This document shows, piece after piece, positions 10,252 to 61,827 of a stretch of 64,000 bases of DNA; position 1 is the first letter of the stretch, and every line of letters begins with the position of its first letter. A model generated the notes under the pieces. It did not search any database and was not told the DNA's origin. It worked only from the letters and a program-made list of their open reading frames with translations. Where the stretch lies: contig CM059446.1 of assembly GCA_030390025.1 (NCBI GenBank), positions 15,190,001 to 15,254,000 on the forward strand, given 5' to 3'. The position numbers and the translations under genes are program-made. Source of the stretch: Squalus acanthias. Taxonomy: Eukaryota.

Positions 10252-11200
10252 GAAACATAGAAACATAGAAGATAGGAGCAGGAGTAGGCCATTCGGCCCC
10301 TCGAGCCTGCTCCGCCATTCGATGAGATCATGGCTGATCATCTCAACTCAGTACCCTGTACCTGCCTTCTCCCCATATCCCTTGATACCTTTAGCTTTAA
10401 GAAATATATCTAACTCATCCTTGAATATATTTAATGACTTCGCCTCAACTACCTTCTGTGGTAGAGAATTCCACAGGTTCACCACTCTCTGGGTGAAGAA
10501 ATTCTTCCTCATTTCTGTCCTAAATGGTTTACCCGCTATCTGTAGATTATGACCCCTGGTTCTGGACTCTCCGACCATCGGGAACATTCTTCCTGTATCT
10601 AGTTTGTCCAGACCTGTCAGAATTTTATATGTTTCGATGAGATCCCCTCTCATTCTTCTATACTCCAGTGAGTATAAGCCCAATTGACCCGATCTCTCCT
10701 CATATGTCATTCCTGCCATCCCAGGTATCAGCCTTGTGAATCTTCGCTGAACTCCTTCCATGGCAAGAACATCCTTCCTCAGATAAGGCGACCAAAACTG
10801 CACACAGTACTCAAGGTGTGGTCTCACCAAGGCCCTGTACAACTGCAGCAGGACATCCCTGTTCCTATACTCAAACCCTTTCGCTATGAAGGCCAACATA
10901 CCATTTGCCTTCTTCACCGCCTGCTGCACCTGCATGCTTACTTTCAGCGACTGGTGCACAAGGACACCCAGGTCTCGTTGCACTTCCCCTTCTCCCAATC
11001 TATTGCCATTCAGATAATAGTCTGCCTTTCTGTTTTTGACACCAAAGTGGATAACCTCGCACTTATCCACGTTATATTGCATCTGCCACGCTTCTGCCCA
11101 CTCACCCAACCTGTCCAGATCATCCTGGAGTTTCTCGGTATCCTCCTCGCAGCACACACTCCCACCCAGCTTTGTGTCATCTGCAAACTTGGAGATATTA
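10252..11200 (-). mobile_element. CR1 LINE, 5'-truncated, young
   Basis: ORF 10348..11292 is open from KFADDTKLGG to the C-terminus GYGEKAG; 3' UTR hairpin region and (TTTCTATG)n tail. Confidence 0.95.
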
Positions 11201-11519
11201 TAATGTGATTGTAATATGGAATGGCACTCAAACCTGCCACCACTGAAGCAGGTAACAGTGCAAAATTGGCCTGTGAAGATCAAATATCTCAAAATCCTGT
11301 TCGAATGCTCAATGTACTTTGAGTTTGTAACTTAAATTTGAAATAGGCTACATACTTTGAAAATGAACTTAATTTCTGAGTAGCGGAGCACCAGAAGGGT
11401 CTATTCTCAGTTCCCTGCTGTTCACAGTATTTGTAAGTGATATGATGGAGGATGGTTCTTTTAATATTACAGATTTGCTGATTACACTAAACAGCAGGCA
11501 GTGAGTATAAGAGACATTG

Positions 11520-16627: not shown

Positions 16628-19241
16628 CATAAGAACATAAGAAATAGGAGCAGGAGTAGGCCATTCGGCCCCTTGAGCCTGCCCCGCCATTCAATGAGAT
16701 CATATCTGATCTTGGCCTCAACGCCACTTTCCCGCCTGCTCCCCATAACCCTTGATTCCCCTGTAGCTCAAATTTTTGTCTATCTCTGCCTTGAATATAT
16801 TCAATGACTCCGCCTCCACAGCTCTCTGGGGCAGAGAATTCCAAGGATTCACGACCCTCTGAGAGAAGAAATTCCTCCTCCATCTCCGTTTTAAATGGGC
16901 GACCCCTTATCCTGAAACTGTGCCCTCTAGTTCTAGATTCCCCCACGAGGGGAAACATCCTCCCTGCATCTACCCTGTCCAGCCCCCTCAGAATCTTATA
17001 TATTTCAATAAGATCACCTCTCATTCTTCTAAACTCCAATGTATAGGCCCAACCTTTCTTCATAAGACAACCCCTTCATCTCAGGAATTAACCTAGTGAA
17101 CCTTCTCTGAACTGCCTCCAATGCAAGTTATACCCCTCCTTAAATAAGGAGACCAAAACTGCACGCAGTACTCCAAGTGTGATCACACCAGCACCCTGTA
17201 CAGTTGTATCAAGACTTCCCTACTTTTATACTCCATCCCCCTTGCAATAAAGGAAAACATTCCATTTGCCTTCCTAATTACTTGCTGTACCTGCATGTTA
17301 ACTTTTTGTGTTTCATGTACGAGGACCCCCAGATCCCTTTGTACCGCAGCATTATGTAGTCTCTCTCCATCTAAATAATAATTTGCTTTTTTTATTTTTC
17401 CTACCAAGTGGATAACCTCACATTTTCCCACATTATACTCCATCTGCCAAATTTTTACCCACTTGCTTAACCTATCTATATCCCTTTGCAGACTCTTTGT
17501 GTCCTCCTCACAACTTGCTTTCCCACCTATCTTTGTATCCTCAGCAAATTTGGCTAAAGTACACACGGTCCCTTCATCCAAGTCATTAATATAGATTGTA
17601 AATAGTTGAGGCCCCAGCACTGATCCCTGTGGCACCCCATTAGTTACAGTTTGCCAACCGGAAAATGACCCATTTATCCCGACTCTTTGTTTTCTGTTAG
17701 TTAGCCAATCCTCTATCCATGCTAATATATTACCCTCAACCCCGTGAGCTCCTATCTTGTGTAGTAACCTTTTATGTGGCACCTTATCGAATGCCTTCTG
17801 GAAATCCAAATACAGTACATCTACTGGTTCCCCTTTATCCACCCTGCTCGTTACATCCTCAAAGAACTCCAGTAAATTTGTCAAACATGATTTCCCATTC
17901 ATAAAACCATGTTGACTCTGCTTGATTGTATTATGATTTTCTAAATGTCCTGCTATTACTTCCTTAATAATGGATTCCAGCATTTTCCCAATGAGAGATG
18001 TTAGGCTAACTGGCCTATAGTTTCCTGTTCTTTGCTTCCCTCCTTTCTTGAATAGGGGCGTTACAAATGTGGTTTTCTAATCTGCTGGGACTTTTCCAGA
18101 ATCCAGGGAAATTTGGTAGCTTACAACCAATGCATCCACTATCTCTGCAGCCACTTCTTTTAAGACCCTAGGATGTAGGCCATCAGGTCCAGGGGATTTG
18201 TCAACCTTCAGTCCCATTAGTTTGCCTAGTACTTTTTCTCTCGTGATGGTCATTGTTTTAAGTTCCTCCCTCCCTATAGCCCCTTGATTATCAATTATTA
18301 TTGGGATGCTTTTAGTGTCTTCTACTGTAAAGACCGATTCAAAATATTTGTTCAAAGTCTCTGCCATTTCCCTGTTTCCCATTATTAATTCCCTTACTTT
18401 AGCTACTCTCTTCCCTTTTATATACCCGTAGAAGCTCTTACTGTCTGCTTTTATATTTTTTGCTAGTTTACTTTCATTATCTATCTTCTCCCTCTTTTTT
18501 TAGTCATCCTTTGCTGGTTTCTAAAAAATTCCTAATCCTCTGGCCTACCACTAATCTTCGCAACGTTGTATGCCTTTTCTTTCAATTTGATACCATCCTT
18601 AACTTCCTTAGTTAGCCACGGATGGTTCATCCTTCTCGTCGAGTCTTTCTTTCTCGCTGGAATAAATCTTTGCTGAGAGTTATGAAATATCTCCTTAAAT
18701 GTCTGCCACTGCTTATCTGCCGTCTTACCCTTTAATCTATTTTCCCCGTTTACTTTAGTCAACTCTGTCTTCATACCTTTGTAATTGCCTTTATTTAAGT
18801 TTAGGACACTAGTTTCAGACCCAAGTTTCTCACCCTCAAACTGAATTTGAAATTCTATCGTGCTATGATCACTCTTCCCTAAAGGATCCTTTACTTTGAG
18901 ATCATTAATTAATCCTGTCTCATTACACATTACCAGATCTAAAATAGCCTTCTCCCTGGCTGGTTCCACAACGTATTGTTTTAAGAAACCATCCCGAATA
19001 CATTCTATGAACTCGTCCTCAAGGCTACCCTTGCCAATTTGATTTGTCCAATCTATATGTAGATTAAAATCGCCCATGATAATCACAGTACCTTTCTTAC
19101 AAGCCCCTATTATTTCTTGATTTATACCCTGTCCTACAGTGTAGCTACTGTTAGGGGGCTTATAGACTACTCCCACTAGTGACTTCTTTCCCTTACTAAA
19201 AAGATTCCACCCAAACTGATTCTACATCTTGATCATCTGAG
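16628..19241 (-). mobile_element. CR1 LINE, 5'-truncated, frameshifted ORF2 (endonuclease part plus RT)
   Basis: ORFs 18532..19176 (IIMGDFN, SDH), 18077..18382 (KSPGPDGLHPRVLKE), 17183..17983 (DFQKAFDKV, GVPQGSVLGP, FAED), 16623..17063; (TTCTTATG)n tail. Confidence 0.95.
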
Positions 19242-26305: not shown

Positions 26306-26466
26306 CTATTAAGATTTTTGTGACTACGAAACAGTTCAAAAGCCAAGGAGTGGAAGAAGCCCTAAAGAACCGTAATTTCACTGTGGAAAAGATGAGTACT
26401 GAAATCAATGAGATCATTCGTGTGTTGCAGCTAACATCCTGGGATGAAGATGCTTGGGCTAGTAAG
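26306..26466 (+). CDS. vcl: vinculin exon 6 (161 nt)
   Basis: tgcag|CT...AAG|gtaggc; (A)[53 protein letters not shown]. Confidence 0.97.
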
Positions 26467-27272
26467 GTAGGCCTGAAAATCTTGGTAGGATATAATGCAA
26501 GTGCTGTGGAAGAAATTAGTGCTGAAGCTTTCATTTACTTCTCTATTGAAGTGTAATAAATTGTTCTCGTACAGTTTTCTTAATAGGACAGTCATTGGCT
26601 GGTTCTGGTTATATGTACATACCTACATTTGCGTGTTTGCAGTGTATGATCTTTCTGTAGCGTTTTTTTTTCATTTTTCACAGTTTTCACTTCTTGGATC
26701 TTGGTTCATTACAATTCCTGTTTTTATTATTTATTTCATTGGGCCACAGACAGTAGATTGTTTTTGAACCTTGCTTACTCACTTGGTATGCTGGGACATA
26801 GAAATCAGGATTAAATCTCAATTTCCATCTTAAAATACCAAATAGAATACCAATCCGTTATTTGATATTGGCAGGAGTAATATTTTTGTTTCCTGCACGC
26901 TGATGTATAATGGAATTCTTTTGCCCACTATGTGTATGTGTGTCTCCACAAAAGTCAAGTGCCTGCCTCAAGACAGGATGATGTATACCTTCTCTTTTGT
27001 TATGCATCAGCCAGCTGGTCCAAAAAAGAATGTGCAAATATAAATTTGGCAAGTAGCCAGATATGCTTATTACATTTTTATCTTTGTCATAAGTGTTACT
27101 GAAACAAAGTTACAAATCTCAAAAACCTTGTTTGTAAACTATCTGCTGTATTTTGTGGTCAAAATGTTACATGTTTTGAATGTTTTCTTTTGCACTCTTT
27201 TTCTTCTTTGTGACCATTACAAGCATCTTATTTTTACTTTCTTCCTTGTTTCTTCTCCGTTCTCCCTTGTAG

Positions 27273-27275
27273 AAG
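27273..27275 (+). CDS. vcl: candidate 3-nt alternative microexon (AAG, Lys) in vcl intron 6
   Basis: about 45-nt polypyrimidine tract, then tgtag|AAG|gtaagc; sits in a phase-0 intron so inclusion keeps the frame; no transcript evidence. Confidence 0.55.
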
Positions 27276-28114
27276 GTAAGCTCACTTTTGTTTTTCTCCG
27301 TTTTTCTGCTGAAGCATGTCCTGAACAAATGCTGTTTACCGCCTTGGTGTGTGATGCAGTTTGCTTCAAATAACGTTATGGCTAGCACATGCTGAACACT
27401 GTTCGTAAAATTCAACTTGCCGTTAGGTCACCTGTCTGGGGCTTTTTAACCACAAATCTCCCATGATTTGAACATGCCTCTTAGAGCTTTGAGAATAGAA
27501 CAGATTATAACATGATCTCTAAAATGACTTCGAATAAAGTTCTTTTCCAGCAAAAGTCAGGGTGAGGCGTAGCTGGAGGGGGAAGAAAGCTTGTTCATAA
27601 CCTCCACTAGGATCAGACATAAATTTCAATATCATAAACTATTTTCAGGACTTAAACAGAATAACATTTATCAAGAATCAGCTCTCCTGACTGGTTGGTG
27701 ACGTGCACAACCTGGTGTGGTATTGAGCCACATTGGACCAGTAAGGTCTTCAGTCTGTGATGAGCTTGTTGATCTAAGCTAGGGTTGCTTTATAGGTGCT
27801 GCAGTTGGTATTGGCTTCCCAAGCTTGTTGGGAGGAAAATTACACAACGTTCCTGCTCTTGGTCAAGTGACGACTCCTGGAAATGTGCTTATGTCCATGT
27901 CTGGTGAGAACAGGACTGGATTGTACTTTGGTGTGACACCTCCTACTGTTGGCCAGTGGGAGCAAGCAGGCTGTTCAAGCATGCACATGGAGAATGGTCT
28001 CTTCAGTGATTGAATACTGTTGATGCCAAAAAGATACCTTGGTATGGTTCGCACCTTAAACAGAGAAGGTGAGGGGGGGAGAAGTGGTCCCTCATAGTAA
28101 ACTTAAAGGCAGAG

Positions 28115-28672
28115 TTTTTTTTTTATTCGTTCATGGGATGTGGGCGTCGCTGGCAAGGCCAGCATTTATTGCCCATCCCTACTTGCCCTTGAGAAGGGGG
28201 TGGTGAGTCGCCGCCTTGAACCGTTGCTGTCCGTGTGGTGAAGGTACTCCCACAGTGCTGTTAGGGAGGGAGTTCCAGGATTTTGACCCAGCGATGATAA
28301 AGGAACGGCCGATATACTTCCAAGTCAGGATTGTGTGTGACTTGGAGGGGAACTTGGAGATGGTGATGTTCCCATGCGCCTGCTGCCCTTGTCCTTCTAG
28401 GTGGAAGAGGTTGCGGGTTTGGGAGGTGCTGCTGAAAGAGCCTTGGCGAGTTGCTGCAGTGCATCTTGTAGATGGTACACATTGCAGCCACGGTACGCTG
28501 GTGGTGGAGGGAGTGAATGTTGAAGATGGTAGATGGGGTGTCAATCAAGCGGGCTGCTTTGTCCTGGATGGTGTCGAGCTTCTTCAGTCTTGTTGGAGCT
28601 GCACTCATCCAGGCAAGTGGCGAGTATTCCATCACACTCCTTACTTGTGCCTTGCAGATGATGGAAAGGCTT
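28115..28672 (-). mobile_element. non-LTR retrotransposon 3' fragment (RTE-X/CR1-group-like), poly(A) tail
   Basis: ORF 28261..28707 KAQVRSVMEYSPLAWMSAAPTRLKKLDTIQDKAARLI; T-run at the left end is the A-tail; clade uncertain. Confidence 0.8.
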
Positions 28673-29385
28673 AATGTGTGTTTGCAGTACAGTGGAAGAC
28701 CAGTCATCAGAGGCTAATTACCCTTGCTGTGTATCTGGTCAACACTATTGTATTTTTACTTCAGTATCATTTTCATAGAATCATAGAATGAAACAGCACG
28801 GAAGGAGGCCATTTGGCCCATCGTTCCTGTGCAGCGCTTTGAAAGAGCTATCCAATTAGTACCACTCCCCTGCTCTTTCCCCATAGCCCTGTAAATGTTT
28901 CCACTTCAACTATTTATCCAATTCCCTTTTGAAAGGTACTATTGAATCTGCTTCCACCATCCTTTGAGGCAGTGCATTCCAGATCATTATAACTCACTGT
29001 GAAATTTTTTTTTCCTCATGTCGCCTCTCGTTCTTTTGCCAATTACCTGAAATCTCTGTCCTCTGGTTACTGACCCTTCTGCCACTGGAAACGGTTCCTC
29101 CTTTTTTGCTTCATCAAAACTTCATGATTTTGAACACCTCTATCAAATCTCCTCTTGACCTTCACTGCTCTAAGGAGAACAACTCCAGTCTCTCCACATA
29201 ACTGAAGTCCCTAATCCCTGGTACTATTCTAGTAAATCGCCTCTGTACCCTCTCCAAAACCTTGACATCCTTCCTAAAGTATGGTGCCCAGAATTGGACA
29301 CAATACTCCAGCTGGGGCCTAACTAGTGTTTAGAAAAGTTTAGCATAACTTCCTTGTTTTTGTACCCTATGCTTCTATTTATAAA

Positions 29386-29552
29386 ATTGAGAGGTCGCAC
29401 AACACCAGGTTATAGTCCAACAGTTTTATTTGAAATCACAAGCTTTCGGAGCTATCGATTGCTCCTTCCTCAGGTGAAGTAAATTAGATACAGAATCGCC
29501 AAAGCATATATAGATAGAGAACAAAGCATGTGTACCTTACAATTGCAGACCA
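29386..29552 (-). mobile_element. Penelope-like fragment nested in CR1
   Basis: flanked by direct repeat CTATTTATAAA (29375-29385, 29553-29563); carries a hammerhead motif. Confidence 0.75.
29436..29477 (-). ncRNA. minimal type I hammerhead ribozyme motif (second family)
   Basis: - strand: TCAC-CTGAGGA-A-GGAGC aatcgata GCTCC-GAAA-GC-TT-GTGA; palindromic AGCU stem III, CUU triplet. Confidence 0.78.
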
Positions 29553-32500
29553 CTATTTATAAAGCCAAGGATCCTGTATGCCTTTTTAACAGCTTTCTCA
29601 ACTTGTCTTGCCACCTTCAAAGACTTGTGTACGTACACTCCCGGGTCTTTCTGTTCCTGCACCTTCTTTAAAATTGTACCAATTAGTTTATATTGCCTCT
29701 CCTCATTCTTCCTACCAAAATGAATCACCACACTTCTGCGTTAAATTTCATCTGCCATGTGTCTGCTCATTTCACCAGTCTGTCAATGCCTCCTGAAGTC
29801 TATTACTGTCTCTCACTGTTTACTACATTTTCGAGTTTCATGTCATATGCAAACCGTGAAATAATGCCCCATATACCCAAGACCAGGTCATTAATAGATA
29901 TCCAACACCGACTCCTGGGGACACACCACTGCACACTCCAGTCTGAAAAACAACCATACACCACTACTTCCTGCTTTCTGTCCCTTTTTAATCAAACATC
30001 AGAACTTTTATTCTCACAAAATGGTGAGGCCCTGCCAAAACATAAAATTATTTAAAAACTTGTTATTGAGACTTTATCCTAAACTTCTGTGTGATTTTTT
30101 TCTTTCCCCCCCCCATTTTACTGGATTTATTTTTGAAGATCAGCATATAGGTACTTTGCAGAATATTGAACCGTGTGTTTCTAGTCATGTGCTAAAACAC
30201 TGCATCTCCTCTAAGTTAAATGTTTCAGACTGTCGTTAAATGTGAAGCCGCCTCCCCGCCCAAAAAAAATCAACTTGCTACACAATTACCACTCAATCTG
30301 TCAAACGTTTCACTAAATTTATTGCACACCAAAACTACACAAGCATTTAGCACGACTGCAGAATATAGTGTGTGCGCGATGAAATCGCAAGTATGTATTT
30401 TAGTGCCAAAAATTCTAAAACGGATGCAATAGGCAGCTCCTTTTTAATGTCTGTGTATTGAAGACACGTGAGCGATTTCTCTTTGATCTCTGTCAATGGT
30501 CTTCAAAGAGGCAGCTGGCTTAAACTTCCAATTAACATTGTTTGAGTTTTGCCTATTAACTGAAATCATCTTAACTCATTGAATAGAATGCAAAGAGAAG
30601 TTACTAAAATTCAAAATGTTGTGGGAATAGAAGGATAATTAGACAAAACATAAAATATAATTTTAAATGTTCAGCCTTTGTCCCTCCAGTGCTCCACAAT
30701 GAGGAATACTAGCTCCAGTCCCCCACTTGCTGGTAATGCCCTTTAGGTACTACCTGTTCGGTACAATGTAAAGGGGGCGTCAGTTTCTACTTTTTTGAAA
30801 TGAAGTAGTTTTGGTAATTTTCTGAAACTCTGAAAGGTTGTTGTAATTTGATCTTTTCCATTCACAGTTAGAAATCCTGTATGCATTATTCAGAAAGTAG
30901 CCTGGATTGCGTTAGTTCAGTTGTATTTCAGGGAAGAGATCCAGCCACTGAAATGTTTCCCCCATGTGTCAATCTACACACGCCTCGAAATTCATGGACT
31001 CCTTTGTATGATTTTATGAACACTGAATACAGTCTTCTAACTGTCTCATTACTTTTTTTCTCTTGAAGCCTTCAGGTTTGAGATTTTTTTTTTAAAAGCT
31101 ATTTAGTTATCTACCCAATTGAATATTTTTTCAATATCCATTTAAACTATTAAAAAGATTGACTTTGATTCTGCACAAAGTTTAGATATGGTGACTTTTA
31201 CACATTAATGTTGACCAGATATTGGGCAGGTATTTTTGATATCCGTTGACCAGCATGCACTTCTTGTATAATTCTTTATTGCATTAAAATAATGCTAAAA
31301 TTAGTGATACCGAGTAGAGTATCGGATTGGTTTATGCTGGTGTGCCTATTGCAATTAAACTTACTGACTGCAAGTGATTAGAATTAATTGAATTTGTTTG
31401 TTTCAAGCATTATCCTGTACCATTCATTTTAATGAATTTTTAATATTGAAACTAATTATGAAACATAATTGCCATGACTCTTTCTTACTGAGGGTATTTT
31501 ACTATGAGTATTGATCACTCATCCTCGTCAATCCTGCCCCATTCCATCTGGCCTTCAGGTTATGTACAGTAATAGAAACTGTAAGTTCACTATTATTGCC
31601 TCTCATTGTACCAAATAGTCCCATGGAAATCAACAGCACTTCTTCAGCCCATCAGTGTTAAGTGTCAGATTTGGAATGGGGTAATCCATGCTCATCTAAT
31701 GTTTGTTTAAAATGGCAGCTTCTACTGCCAACAATATCAAATTAAGGCATGAGGTTCTTTTAAGCACTTGCTCTGCCAACCCAATGTTTGGATTTTAGTT
31801 GACAATTGATAAATTATGTTGTAATACTTTTTAACTTGGTGTTCTACACCGAAGTAAGTATGTTTTGAAATGAAAGTATGTTAAAGCTACACAATTAGTG
31901 TACTTCACATCCATCTAAAAGCTCTTAATTTGTCTATTGGAAAAGAACCAGATGCTTTCCTGTGTTTTGTTGCTGCTCCACATGTTCTGCTTTAATTAAA
32001 AAGACACTGTTTGGATGAGCACTGCTTGGATGTCACAGCACAAGTTTGGTTGTGATGAATGGACTAGTGCTTACACCAGAATATTTTGCATGTTTGACCA
32101 AAGAAGGTCATGCTTGAAAAAAACAGATACCACAGAAATGTCTGGGCCTGGTTTGTTTAATAATCACAGGATGAAGTCTGTGCAAAATGCAATTTGCCTG
32201 CAAAAAAAATGAGCTACATTTCCTTTTGCAGCCAATGACACAGTGCAAAAATATGGAGAGAATCTGCCAAGAGGGCCTTCTTGGGTTGTACTTAGCCTAA
32301 GTTTGGCAAACTTTAAAACTTGTTTCAGAGAGCTCGGAAATGTAGTTTTTATGGTGTTAATTGATTATTGCCAAGTAAGTTGCTTCCCAAACTGCAAAAC
32401 CCTGAAAAAAATAATCTGGAAAACAAATTGACAAGTTAATATTTTTGGTTCATTTATGTATTTATTGATTTATTCATTTCATCATAAGATTGGTGCAGTT

Positions 32501-32779
32501 TATTCAAATTTTAATGAAATTGCTGGAAAGTTGAGGCATTGCAGAGAATATTGAGAGCTAGAATTCATGCCAGTGAATGCTGTGTACATGAACTTCAAAT
32601 TGGTACTCCACGTAATATTTCTTCAGGGTTATGGGATTCTTTTGTCTGCAGAACACCACTAAGGGGCATTAATATTATTTGATGCAATAATTTAGTGTGT
32701 CCATTGTTCAATAGCAAAATAAATACTATGTTAATATTTATATAGATGTTTCACAACTTACATTGCCAACAGTCACCAT

Positions 32780-33600
32780 AGCATAGTCCTGCAGAACATA
32801 TCTCTGAGCATTTCATGATGGAGAAAAAGAATGGCGCTGATCGGGGAGGGGGTGGGTGGGGGGCCACGATTGAAGTTTGTGGGGAGCAAGAGGCAAGAGA
32901 AGGGTATTGAGACTTTGGAAGGTGGGGGCCATGGTGATTGAGAGATTCTGGGAAAATGTTCAGGGCTCAAATTGGGAACTAACAATAATCCAGTGCTTGA
33001 GGAGTGCAGAGTGGGCACAGGGATGTACTGTTGGAGAAGATTGCTCATTGAATAGTGAATGGCTTTGGAGGAATTTTGAAATGACGTAGAGATTTTGAAA
33101 TGAGGTAGGGATTTTGAAGTTGGGGTGGGATACATGTAGCTTGACAAGAACAGGAGTGATAGGAGTGCAGGGCTTTGTGCATGAGTATGTAATAGCTTGT
33201 GGGAGCCAAAGAGGATGGGTTCAATTTTACTGATGTTGAACTGAGGAAAAATTACGCCTCCTCCACAATCTGATTTTGGACAAACAGTATAGCAACATTA
33301 TTCAAGTGGAGGTCGAGCGATGCAATTGAGTTTTGTTGGAGTATATGCAGAAATCTACCTTGTGGATGCAGCATGTTAATGATGAAGAGGGGGAATCATG
33401 GATGGAACTCTGAGGCATAGCCAAGGTGATTGTGTAAACACTGGAGGAGAGTGAGGTGTAGTGACTACGTTAGGACAGATATGAATGAAACCATAAAACA
33501 GTAATGCTGCAGAGATGCACTCCACACCCAAGAGGGTGGAATGGTCCATTCATGTACTGTTGAAAGCCTCAGAGGTGTTTTGGAGGGACAATCAGCCATA
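32780..33600 (-). mobile_element. decayed L2-like fragment
   Basis: purine-rich sequence resembling the reverse complement of the L2 copies (gattttgaaatgagg...gattttgaa); boundaries approximate. Confidence 0.45.
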
Positions 33601-34087
33601 GTCACAGCTGCAAAGGTTTATATTGGTGACTTTGACTTGGATGGTCTCACTGATTTGTCTGGAGGGGGGGTCAGAAATTGAATTGGATTATTTTGAATAA
33701 GGCGTGGTGGAAGAGATGAGTATATAGTTGGTTGGCAATTCATTGTCCAAGGACCTTCAGTTGCAGGGGAGGGTGGGGTAGAGGGGGTAGATTGGAGGTA
33801 ATATAATAGGTGGAGAGAACTGACCTGGTTGAGGATAAGATTTTTTGAGAAGGGGGTGAAAGCAGACACCTGGAAAGAAATGGGGAGAATGCTGGAGGGT
33901 ATGGTGAGATGGTCAGCAAGCATTGGCTGAGGATTGGAAGTTGAGCAGTGAGGAGCTGGGTTTGGGATAGATTCCAGGGAGTAGGAGTGGGCCTCATTGA
34001 GCTGAGGGGAGATGGCGAGAAGAGGCAGAGTATGAGTAGGATGGGGCTTGTTCTAGGTGAACTGGGGATTGCCTGACAATGCAATAA

Positions 34088-34175
34088 TCCTTCAGTACTG
34101 CACTGGAGTTTCAGCCTGAATTATGTGCTCAAGTCTCTGGAGTGGGGATTGGACCCATGGCTTTCTGACTCTGCC
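34088..34175 (-). mobile_element. 5' fragment of Deu-domain SINE
   Basis: cagtactgcactggagtttcagcct...gtgctcaagtctctggagtggg matches 22386-22445. Confidence 0.7.
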
Positions 34176-35155
34176 AAGGCTGATGGGTAAAGGAATGAAG
34201 TGGAGCAGGAAGAAGATACATGGGCATAAGAGCTCTGGTCTGGAGCAACAATATGCATATATGAATGGACTGAGGGCAACCAGTAGTTATAACATTCACA
34301 GATTAGTTCACAAGGGTGGGGAGGTTGGGGAAGCTTTGGTCTATGAAGACAACATCATCAGCTACACTTTGGAGGCAGTGTCTGGGTCGGTCTCTGCTGA
34401 ATTGAAGCTTATCTGAAGGCTGTGATTGGGCCAGCTTGGGGGATAGTCGTGAAATCGGGAACCAGGGCTTTCCAGGGAGGGTTGGAAATTTGGAATCAGT
34501 TTGACATTGCATTCTGGGACAGTTTTTTGTAGATTTTTTTAAATTACACTTAATAGTGAGATGTAATTAACTGGTAATTTACAAAGGCAATAGAAATATG
34601 TGCTTCTGTTTGCACAGTTCTATTTTAGAAAATGGAACTGGACTGTTGGATATGACACTAACCTGTTGGTTCTCAAAAGCTGCAAACTGACATGCACCCT
34701 TCATAATGTTATGACCGTCTCCTGCTGATATATTTTCCTCCTGTTGAAAGGTTATTGGAAATTAACTGATTTCTTTCCCTTGTGCATTCTCAATTGGTTC
34801 CTGGGATTTTTACAGACAAGAGAAGTGTTTTGTGAGATTTTGCCAGTAATTTCTCCATATGAAAGGCTGTTCCAGTGTGACATTTACCATAGAGGAGATT
34901 CCGCAGATGGAGCCACGTGCATTGTGCAGTGAAATATTGAAATGTTTGTGTACTGCCAGTTATGTGGAACTCTATTTGAAAGTAGATGACACTGAAGGAA
35001 AAACAAAACTGATTATTTAAAAGTAATAATAGCAGCATTTTCAAATCTTAATCTTTTCAGGAAGTGCTTGATTCCCAGTTTATTGTCTTATAATAACGGT
35101 ACGATGCAACATATTTGCATTGTGGGACTGATGTTGATTTTCCTTAAGCTCATAA

Positions 35156-35958
35156 AATTCATGAGAAGTTGTGATTGAATATAGTTGGATGATGCATTTT
35201 CAATAAGCAAAATAAAATATACAGCGAACCACGCATCTTCACACAATCTGATAGTGTTATTGTAGTATATAGTGCTGCATATAGTGGCAGAGTCTCTAAA
35301 TTAACAATAATCAGAAATTTTGTTATGGCTTTAAAAGTTTTAGTTTGACAGCAGCTGCTTTGGTTTGAGACAGTTCTTTATTACTTGTAATTATTTATAG
35401 TTTCCATAATGAAAAACACTATTTACCGCAAGACTTGCGATGCCATTACAAATGTTAGTATTCCATTCCTGAATTGTAGTCAGAAGTGATCCAAAATGTT
35501 GGAGAACATTTAAAAGGTTTACTGTTTAACTTGTAGGAGTTAGACCATGTAGTTTCTGGCCAGAAAAAAATGCTAAGTTCAAGATATGTGAATTATTGAT
35601 TTTTTTTTCTTTTAAGGATAGTGAAGACCACATTTTGTCAGATTGAATTGAGGTTTTTTTCTTCAGCTTTTGATCATTCAACTAATATTGTATTGCTAAC
35701 TGATGTCTATTTTGACAGGATACGGAAACTATGAGAAGAGCTTTAGCCATGATTGACTCAAAGATAAACCAGGCCAAAAATTGGCTAAGAGATCCTAATG
35801 CACTTCCAGGTAATAACAATTCATGAGAATTTGTGATGAATATCGTTATATGATGCATTTCCTATAAGCAAAATAGCATCCAATGCTAACCACACACCTT
35901 CACACAATCTGGTAGTGCTAATGTGGTATATAGTACTGTATATAATGGAAGAGTCTCT
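35156..35958. repeat. diverged 140-bp direct repeat pair (35156-35297 and 35818-35958) bracketing exon 7
   Basis: both read aattcatgagaa.ttgtgat...gatgcattt...ataagcaaaata...cttcacacaatctg.tagtg...agagtctct. Confidence 0.9.
35719..35809 (+). CDS. vcl: vinculin exon 7 (91 nt)
   Basis: gacag|GAT...CCAG|gtaata; [30 protein letters not shown]. Confidence 0.96.
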
Positions 35959-60800: not shown

Positions 60801-61553
60801 GAGTTCAATGTGTCTAGGTAAACCTGTTGAAAGTTCTCTCTTCTTATTCACTGTTAGGTTCTACTAACTCTAGAATTAATTTTCTTCAACTTATGAAAGC
60901 TTCTTTATCCTTCGCTTGACAACAATAATCTTTCATTTCATCTTTGTTTCATTAAAGCTTTACCCTCCCATATGTTAGCTTGAATTTCTTTTTTTTGTTA
61001 CAGCATTGATTAGCAATTCCTGCATTTCTGTTGACCTTTTGAGTTTGTACTTTCTAACCTGTATCTTTATCTTTACTTTCCATTCCCTTAAGGATGTAAC
61101 TTGTGATGATTCCTGGCATGACCTTCATTGTCCCATCATTCTATTGCATTCCAGCATCCAAGCTTGTATATGTTTTTGCGTTCAGTCCCCAGTGTTGTGC
61201 ATGCTACCACTGATTCTGCTTCAGATCATTGAATAATGTCATTATCTTTTTCGTCTTTGTCCTGCTGTTTAGTTATGCAAAAGGTCAAAAGATGAGTCAG
61301 TGAATGTGCAGGAAAATTTTTCAGCTTTTTCTGTGGAAAAATGCCATCCTTCTCTGTCCTTTCCCTCGAGCATGATTCATCTGCTTCCATTAGTTGGCAG
61401 TAAGTTAAGTCACAAGCTAAAAATAGCCATCTGTTCTTCCCTTCCTGATTTTTCCCAGATGCATTTTTTGCTTTCCTTCCCTACAGAACAAGAAGATACC
61501 CAATTACTAAAATAACTCCGTTCATATCCTCTCTTTCCTTCTTCTGTCTCTCC

Positions 61554-61560: not shown

Positions 61561-61608
61561 TCTTTCACTGTCTTTCCATCCTCCCCTCTGCACTCGCTAC
61601 CATTAAAG

Positions 61609-61827
61609 CCTGATGTGACTGATGAGGCAAGTGAAGCAATTGAGGCTGATGTAGATGTGTATGATGATGATGATGATGACGATGATGTTGAGTTGACTCT
61701 TCCCTCTGACAATGAAGATGAGTACGAGCCTGAGCTACTTTTAATGCCTACAAATCAGCCAGTTAACCAGCCAATTCTGGCTGCTGCTCAGTCTTTGCAT
61801 CGAGAAGCAAGAAAATGGTCTAGTAAG
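61609..61827 (+). CDS. vcl: vinculin exon 19, alternative metavinculin insert (219 nt, 73 aa)
   Basis: cattaaag|CCT...AAG|gtactc; [73 protein letters not shown]; C-terminal half matches human metavinculin; acceptor chosen as the first AG after the TACTAAC branch point, in frame. Confidence 0.92.

Follow-up and report, generated by a model that had tools for sequence, protein, structure and literature searches.

A conserved three-nucleotide cassette exon in the vinculin gene of Squalus acanthias, probably biased towards striated muscle

The vinculin locus and its microexon

Few mechanosensing proteins have been studied as much as vinculin, for which two isoforms are usually given, vinculin and metavinculin. 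The window analysed here, a stretch of 64,000 nucleotides from Squalus acanthias, comprises most of one vinculin gene on the plus strand, whose exons span 16175 to 61827 as mapped by tblastn with shark proteins against the window and are numbered by counting along this map. The 53-amino-acid translation of exon 6 was found in a protein search to be identical to that of shark and ray vinculins. Since exon 6 ends with a complete AAG codon at 26466 and exon 7 begins with GAT at 35719, the intron between them is in phase 0 (Table 1). This agrees with the original prediction that inclusion of a 3-nt exon would change WASK-DTE to WASKK-DTE without a frameshift, and a WASKKD isoform is indeed on record in jawed vertebrates. 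The metavinculin exon, bearing an acidic run of Asp, lies at 61606-61827. Several introns carry reverse transcriptase and endonuclease fragments, labelled as retroelement-like from their translations (10350-11330, 17190-19220, 28100-29800 and others); inside the host intron such repeats lie near 28100-29800 and 34000-34200, where the contig depth is very high. Exon 7 is flanked on both sides by a 122-nt direct repeat (35176-35297 and 35837-35958, 82% identical). No Rfam match was obtained in 26400-35800.

Table 1. Features of vinculin exons 6 and 7 and of the intron between them (positions within the window).
Feature	Position	Strand	Remarks
Vinculin exon 6	26306..26466	+	161 nt; ends with codon AAG (Lys261), followed by phase-0 donor GTAGGC
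Host intron (exons 6-7)	26467..35718	+	9,252 nt, GT..AG; skip joint in runs X1, X4, X10
Extended pyrimidine tract	27170..27269	+	78/100 pyrimidines; core 27226-27270
Branch-point-like element	27211..27217	+	motif scan; sole one upstream
Acceptor TAG	27270..27272	+	first AG after the pyrimidine tract
3-nt microexon AAG (Lys)	27273..27275	+	+Lys isoforms in orthologs
Donor GTAAGC	27276..27281	+	consensus donor
Downstream pyrimidine tract	27282..27311	+	25/30 pyrimidines; CU 4-mer count ordinary (16% of windows)
YGCY cluster (MBNL-type)	27307..27421	+	six copies; motif scan
GCATG, RBFOX-type element	27314..27318	+	39 nt downstream
Vinculin exon 7	35719..35809	+	91 nt; first codon GAT (Asp); acceptor CAG

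The core of the upstream tract had been described as almost purely pyrimidine and free of AG from 27224 onwards. It contains 40 pyrimidines in 45 positions, a level reached by 0.07% of the 45-mers of the window, and the last AG upstream of the acceptor is found at 27222-27223, the next one only at 27271. The predicted succession of TAG, AAG and GTAAGC at 27270-27281, with its near-consensus donor, holds in both letters and positions. The AG of the microexon itself forms a second, tandem acceptor that abuts the donor. Judging from the single branch-point-like motif, the putative branch A would be at 27213, approximately 60 nt before the acceptor. Among all sites of the form AG-N(0-30)-GTRAG in the window (203 on the plus strand and 194 on the minus strand), the microexon possesses the richest tract, with 35 pyrimidines in 40, and it is the top-scoring mini-exon site; the combination of YAG with 28/40 pyrimidines was found at nine of the plus-strand sites and at none of the minus-strand sites. 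In 300 runs of a third-order Markov null modelled on the intron, not one comparable site arose. The predicted RNA fold of 27181-27400 showed no special structure (z = 0.56). Another site resembling a mini-exon (6 nt, GTAAGT) was noticed upstream of the metavinculin exon (61391-61405); as a 6-nt mini-exon at 61394 it was rejected, because the two extra residues occur in none of the metavinculin proteins collected.

The RNA-like data from this animal consist of contigs from unknown tissues, in which rare forms drop out, and among the joints listed all three runs (X1, X4 and X10) showed only skipping of the microexon, the skip joint being an exact match to the host intron; with data of this kind, a missing inclusion contig does not speak for silencing of the exon. 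Runs X1 and X4 have no exon differences from the window and X10 comes from a relative. A DNA contig of a relative, covering 27119-28143, differs from the window by 32 substitutions and 36 gap letters over the whole contig. Run X1 also includes an unspliced contig over the microexon (27121-27375) with a depth of 9.5, the closest of the other intronic contigs listed having a depth of 3.3.

The additional lysine in other vertebrate vinculins

The search for vinculin proteins with the predicted WASKKD junction led to a set of 423 sequences from protein searches and cluster look-ups, 370 of which span the exon 6-7 junction, 46 proteins without exon 7 and 7 without exon 6 having been left out. At this junction, 204 proteins have no insert, 162 carry an additional Lys, two vole models have Val and two have longer inserts; since queries with the additional Lys were used in part of the searches, the ratio of 162 to 204 is not a frequency. 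The predicted isoform thus exists in 162 of 370 vinculins, from cartilaginous fishes to mammals. It was found in four cartilaginous fishes (chimaera, whale shark, skate and catshark, the latter with isoforms X1, X3 and X5), in bony fishes (bichir, sturgeon, bowfin and teleost vinculin a) and throughout the tetrapods (frogs, caecilians, squamates, turtles, alligator, birds, monotremes, marsupials and placentals up to baboon). All 12 isoform pairs that were compared within a species differ by the single Lys alone, and the Lys occurs in proteins of vinculin length (125 records) as well as of metavinculin length (26 records). In a comparison of 356 vinculins, isoform inserts of one residue recurred at position 261 only; the other cases are polyproline length differences by lineage or confined to at most five records. 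No +Lys protein was present among the records listed for approximately 15 other sharks and rays, nor among those listed for human or house mouse.

The majority of the +Lys records are predicted RefSeq models, possibly with common protein evidence. Outside the RefSeq XP predictions, the Lys is found in the pig entry (NP_999099.1/AAL50327.1/P26234-2), an NP record (cDNA/RefSeq) with GenBank and Swiss-Prot isoform accessions, in marmoset U3FL37 and chimaera V9K798, and in two assembled contigs (P0283, P0403). Judging by accession type, we take the marmoset and chimaera records to be transcript-derived. Two truncated teleost models read K-V-S followed by pyrimidine-rich codons past exon 6, matching the window from 27273, which indirectly points to the same donor in teleosts. 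The shark microexon does not differ in kind from the exon of the pig (NP_999099.1/P26234-2) and of catshark isoforms X1, X3 and X5, which add the same single Lys at 261/262. It is therefore already present in gene models and is not new as a sequence feature: the expectation that an exon of this size would have been missed by annotation does not hold in general, as many RefSeq models and, very likely, VastDB already include it.

In a metagenome scan, the alignment crossed the junction unbroken in 17 of 17 invertebrate-type vinculin loci, at least five of which have introns nearby. Given the absence of an intron at this junction in the invertebrate-type loci, the origin of the exon lies with the jawed vertebrates or earlier, the sample comprising jawed vertebrates and invertebrate-type loci. 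In teleosts, only one of the paralogs may have retained the exon: four characiform records of vinculin b type (P0057, P0073, P0074, P0228) were observed without the Lys, and vinculin a records have it. An eagle model (P0088) with a 10-residue insert ending in Lys at the same junction, and the two vole models (P0279, P0284), in which Val-Ser replaces Asp, are probably model variants.

Human counterpart, tissue pattern and flanking elements

The microexon is very likely catalogued in VastDB as human VCL HsaEX0070285, an exon of the same gene and of the same length of 3 nt. We are highly confident that the two are orthologs, since no one-residue isoform insert other than that at residue 261 is recurrent and the spacing to the metavinculin exon is similar (35.8 kb in human, 34.3 kb in this window). 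The human VCL exon coordinates, as we assume them to be, also fit HsaEX0070285 as the ortholog in intron 6. Normal head-and-neck samples include skeletal muscle. HsaEX0070285 (chr10:74076110-74076112) appears once across 18 supplementary files of PMC7935315, in the available part of its S3 Data, where among nine TCGA tissues it differs between normal and tumour samples in head-and-neck only, with a PSI of 9.7 versus 1.7. The same source reports differences confined to head-and-neck for a 21-nt exon of TMED2 (6.4 versus 0.7) and for the 3-nt microexon HsaEX0065132 of TLN1 (7.5 versus 0.8), and the difference of an 81-nt FXR1 exon is largest there. For the metavinculin exon, the differences lie in prostate, uterus and colorectal samples. 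For 11 other genes looked up in the available S3 Data of PMC7935315, head-and-neck rows exist for four (TMED2, FXR1, TRIP10, TLN1), CLTC, CAPZB and NCAM1 occur only in non-head-and-neck tissues, and SNAP23, MEF2D, ITGB1 and ATP5F1C have no rows; the head-and-neck sheet is a mixture of exons, with a 24-nt exon of MEF2A and a 3-nt exon of VDAC3 among the rows listed. According to the accessible portion of PMC8925968, inclusion of the TMED2 exon amounts to 68-80% in the heart and gastrocnemius of adult mice, whose brain excludes it. The head-and-neck pattern, which the vinculin exon has in common with the striated-muscle TMED2 exon and the TLN1 microexon, indirectly suggests inclusion in striated muscle, and by this analogy we consider a muscle bias of the vinculin microexon to be probable.

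The 100 nt upstream of the microexon contain 17 CU-type 4-mers, a number reached by 0.05% of 100-nt windows, and these may act as PTBP1-like binding sites, as judged by their sequence. One 9-mer is common to the tracts on either side of the microexon (approximately 27253-27261 and 27292-27300). The GCATG anticipated downstream is present; it is weak evidence on its own, since a GCATG lies no further than 100 nt from 8.9% of window positions and the preceding T is absent. Several YGCY motifs had also been anticipated, and the six found within 150 nt downstream are mildly unusual, the background mean being 1.9 and a count of six being attained by 2.2% of windows. Downstream enrichment of TGCATG and repression by PTBP1 are features of alternative micro-exons in the accessible text of PMC4317164, and the muscle microexon of Snap23 is driven by RBFOX2, QKI and MBNL (PMC12064062, as far as available). 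By motif scan, the downstream RBFOX- and MBNL-type elements of such striated-muscle microexons are present at the vinculin site. No QKI motif (ACTAAY or CTAAC) was found in 27100-27600, and the weak donor of Snap23-type microexons is replaced here by a consensus donor. Likewise, the UGC that SRRM3/4-type microexons have close upstream of the acceptor is absent here, the nearest TGC being at 27191, approximately 80 nt away. The view that SRRM4 control is not indicated gains further support from the absence of HsaEX0070285 from the 314 SRRM4 target exons determined in HEK293 cells, as given in the available files of PMC7935315.

Among exons already known, the vinculin microexon resembles the conserved 3-nt cassettes of the cytohesin and TLN1 type: its AG, three nucleotides and GT are surrounded by strong signals, the frame is preserved and both isoforms are known from orthologs. 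One-codon alternative exons are also represented by the single triplet of NCAM1 and the single-codon exon of VDAC3, which are used in muscle and brain; these proteins are unrelated to vinculin. The NCAM exons named in the accessible part of PMC2120321 are 12A-D. The 3-nt microexon of cytohesin-1/2 is likewise a conserved cassette adding one residue, but there a Gly is placed in a PH domain and a switch in lipid binding has been shown, whereas in vinculin a Lys is placed at the hinge of helical bundles (PMC6314551, in part). TLN1 HsaEX0065132 belongs to another gene; it is similar in being 3 nt long, conserved in mammals and of the same TCGA pattern, and its product is the direct partner of vinculin (available parts of PMC4317164 and PMC7935315). 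The Snap23 exon resembles the vinculin one in being in-frame and followed by RBFOX- and MBNL-type elements; it differs in its 33 nt, weak donor and QKI dependence (PMC12064062, in part).

Interpretation and alternatives

The reading that we favour, and regard as reasonably probable, is that of an ancient 3-nt cassette exon of vinculin that adds a Lys, is included preferentially in striated muscle and tunes the opening of the vinculin head. Within the phase-0 intron, the exon is defined by a long pyrimidine tract free of AG, by the AG that comes first after it and by the consensus donor, and orthologs from cartilaginous fishes to mammals have both isoforms, one Lys apart. In the mechanism proposed here, skipping would be the default, owing to the tiny size of the exon and to PTBP1-type binding at the CU-rich tract. 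In differentiated heart and skeletal muscle, for example, inclusion would follow once PTBP1 drops and RBFOX- and MBNL-type factors occupy the downstream side. In the last and weakest step, Lys262 would extend and charge the D1-D2 junction and thereby shift the movement of D1 upon talin binding.

That the exon is real we consider almost certain. A splice-like sequence arisen by chance, with the +Lys records due to annotation carry-over or to a shifted exon 6 or exon 7 splice site, would fit the exclusive skipping in the contigs of this animal and the lack of the Lys in the listed records of the other sharks and rays, but is extremely improbable in view of the Markov null, the +Lys records outside the predictions and the TCGA PSI values. 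Moreover, a shift by 3 nt would here yield Val from the exon 6 donor or Gln from the exon 7 acceptor, and both were rejected as sources of the Lys. In tenrec, the insert is Lys even though the final residue of exon 6 is Arg, which also rules out a slippage copy of the last exon 6 codon. Another explanation assumes that the site is retained chiefly for recursive (ratchet) splicing; a tolerated Lys isoform without protein function would then leak from the first AG. On this route the second AG (27274-27275) would give a zero-length exon and, since exon 6 also ends with AAG, a strong donor would be rebuilt. The succession of AG and GT at 27274-27277 behind a strong tract, the invariant AAG, which fits splice-site constraints, and the depth of the unspliced contig of run X1 speak in its favour. 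Recursive splice sites are, however, known from very long introns, whereas the site lies 806 nt from the donor of an intron of only 9,252 nt; in addition, TAG comes first of the two acceptors and is the better one, human inclusion differs between tissue classes, and the contig joints listed include none between exon 6 and 27276. We therefore judge a mainly recursive role to be quite unlikely.

The 24-nt MEF2A and 3-nt VDAC3 exons are presumably used in brain as well as in muscle. Their presence in the head-and-neck sheet of PMC7935315, together with the downstream TGCATG and PTBP1 repression that typify micro-exons of the brain (PMC4317164; both sources in part), would be compatible with a real microexon that is neural, or neural as much as muscular, and that depends on loss of PTBP1 and on RBFOX1/3 independently of SRRM4. 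Against such a neural exon, there is no UGC near the acceptor and no entry among the 314 SRRM4 targets, and the vinculin microexon co-varies with the TMED2 exon, which is excluded from brain. In addition, vcl was not found by name in the supplements of two zebrafish neural-microexon papers and of the mouse MicroExonator paper, where tables giving coordinates only could escape such a search; overall, name searches gave no vcl in the available supplementary files of PMC7821500, PMC4317164, PMC12626424 and PMC12626420. Taken together, a predominantly or equally neural use appears unlikely.

Our search, which covered only a minority of the subscription journals, found no paper on the regulation or function of the vinculin microexon. 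In the accessible text of PMC12721327 and PMC9580925 only the metavinculin exon is treated, and in that of PMC13281805 vinculin serves as a loading control. We came across the exon only in databases and in one supplementary table. By analogy it is probably a muscle-biased switch. Vinculin would accordingly have a second splice switch, from sharks to mammals, which ordinary gels do not reveal; should this switch be biased towards muscle and alter activation by talin, work on muscle vinculin has been done with the wrong form. This switch may be paired with one in talin-1. A joint switching on of the 3-nt microexons of vinculin and talin-1 in striated muscle is a doubtful idea: if true, two single-residue insertions under common regulation would retune the force-bearing partners at the core of the costamere, and the one in vinculin would have been conserved since the first jawed vertebrates and is missing from the solved vinculin structures examined.

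The crystal constructs of D1 comprise residues 1-258 and the additional Lys lies just past them, three residues beyond their end, in line with the original proposal of a single-residue insertion in the linker after the talin-binding D1 domain. Two full-length vinculin structures that were aligned lack the inserted Lys. The predicted effect at this hinge behind D1 would be a fine-tuned opening of the head with the fold unchanged. A subtle alteration of the D1-D2 hinge by the Lys, with a measurable effect on the protein, seems possible, although we would place it somewhat below an even chance. The invariance of the Lys may owe much to the needs of the splice sites: a strong donor requires NAG and CAG would be a strong competing acceptor, so that the residue is probably Lys partly for the sake of splicing. 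Since the Lys was possibly kept for this reason, its conservation proves selection on the exon and not on the side chain. A kinase motif formed by Ser260-Lys-Lys was rejected as the ancestral function, because 18 of the 162 +Lys records have Asn at 260. A structure model of exon 6 only (pLDDT 71, low at the end) begins with a long helix, which is interrupted and followed by a short one at 253-258 and then by a coil of low confidence.
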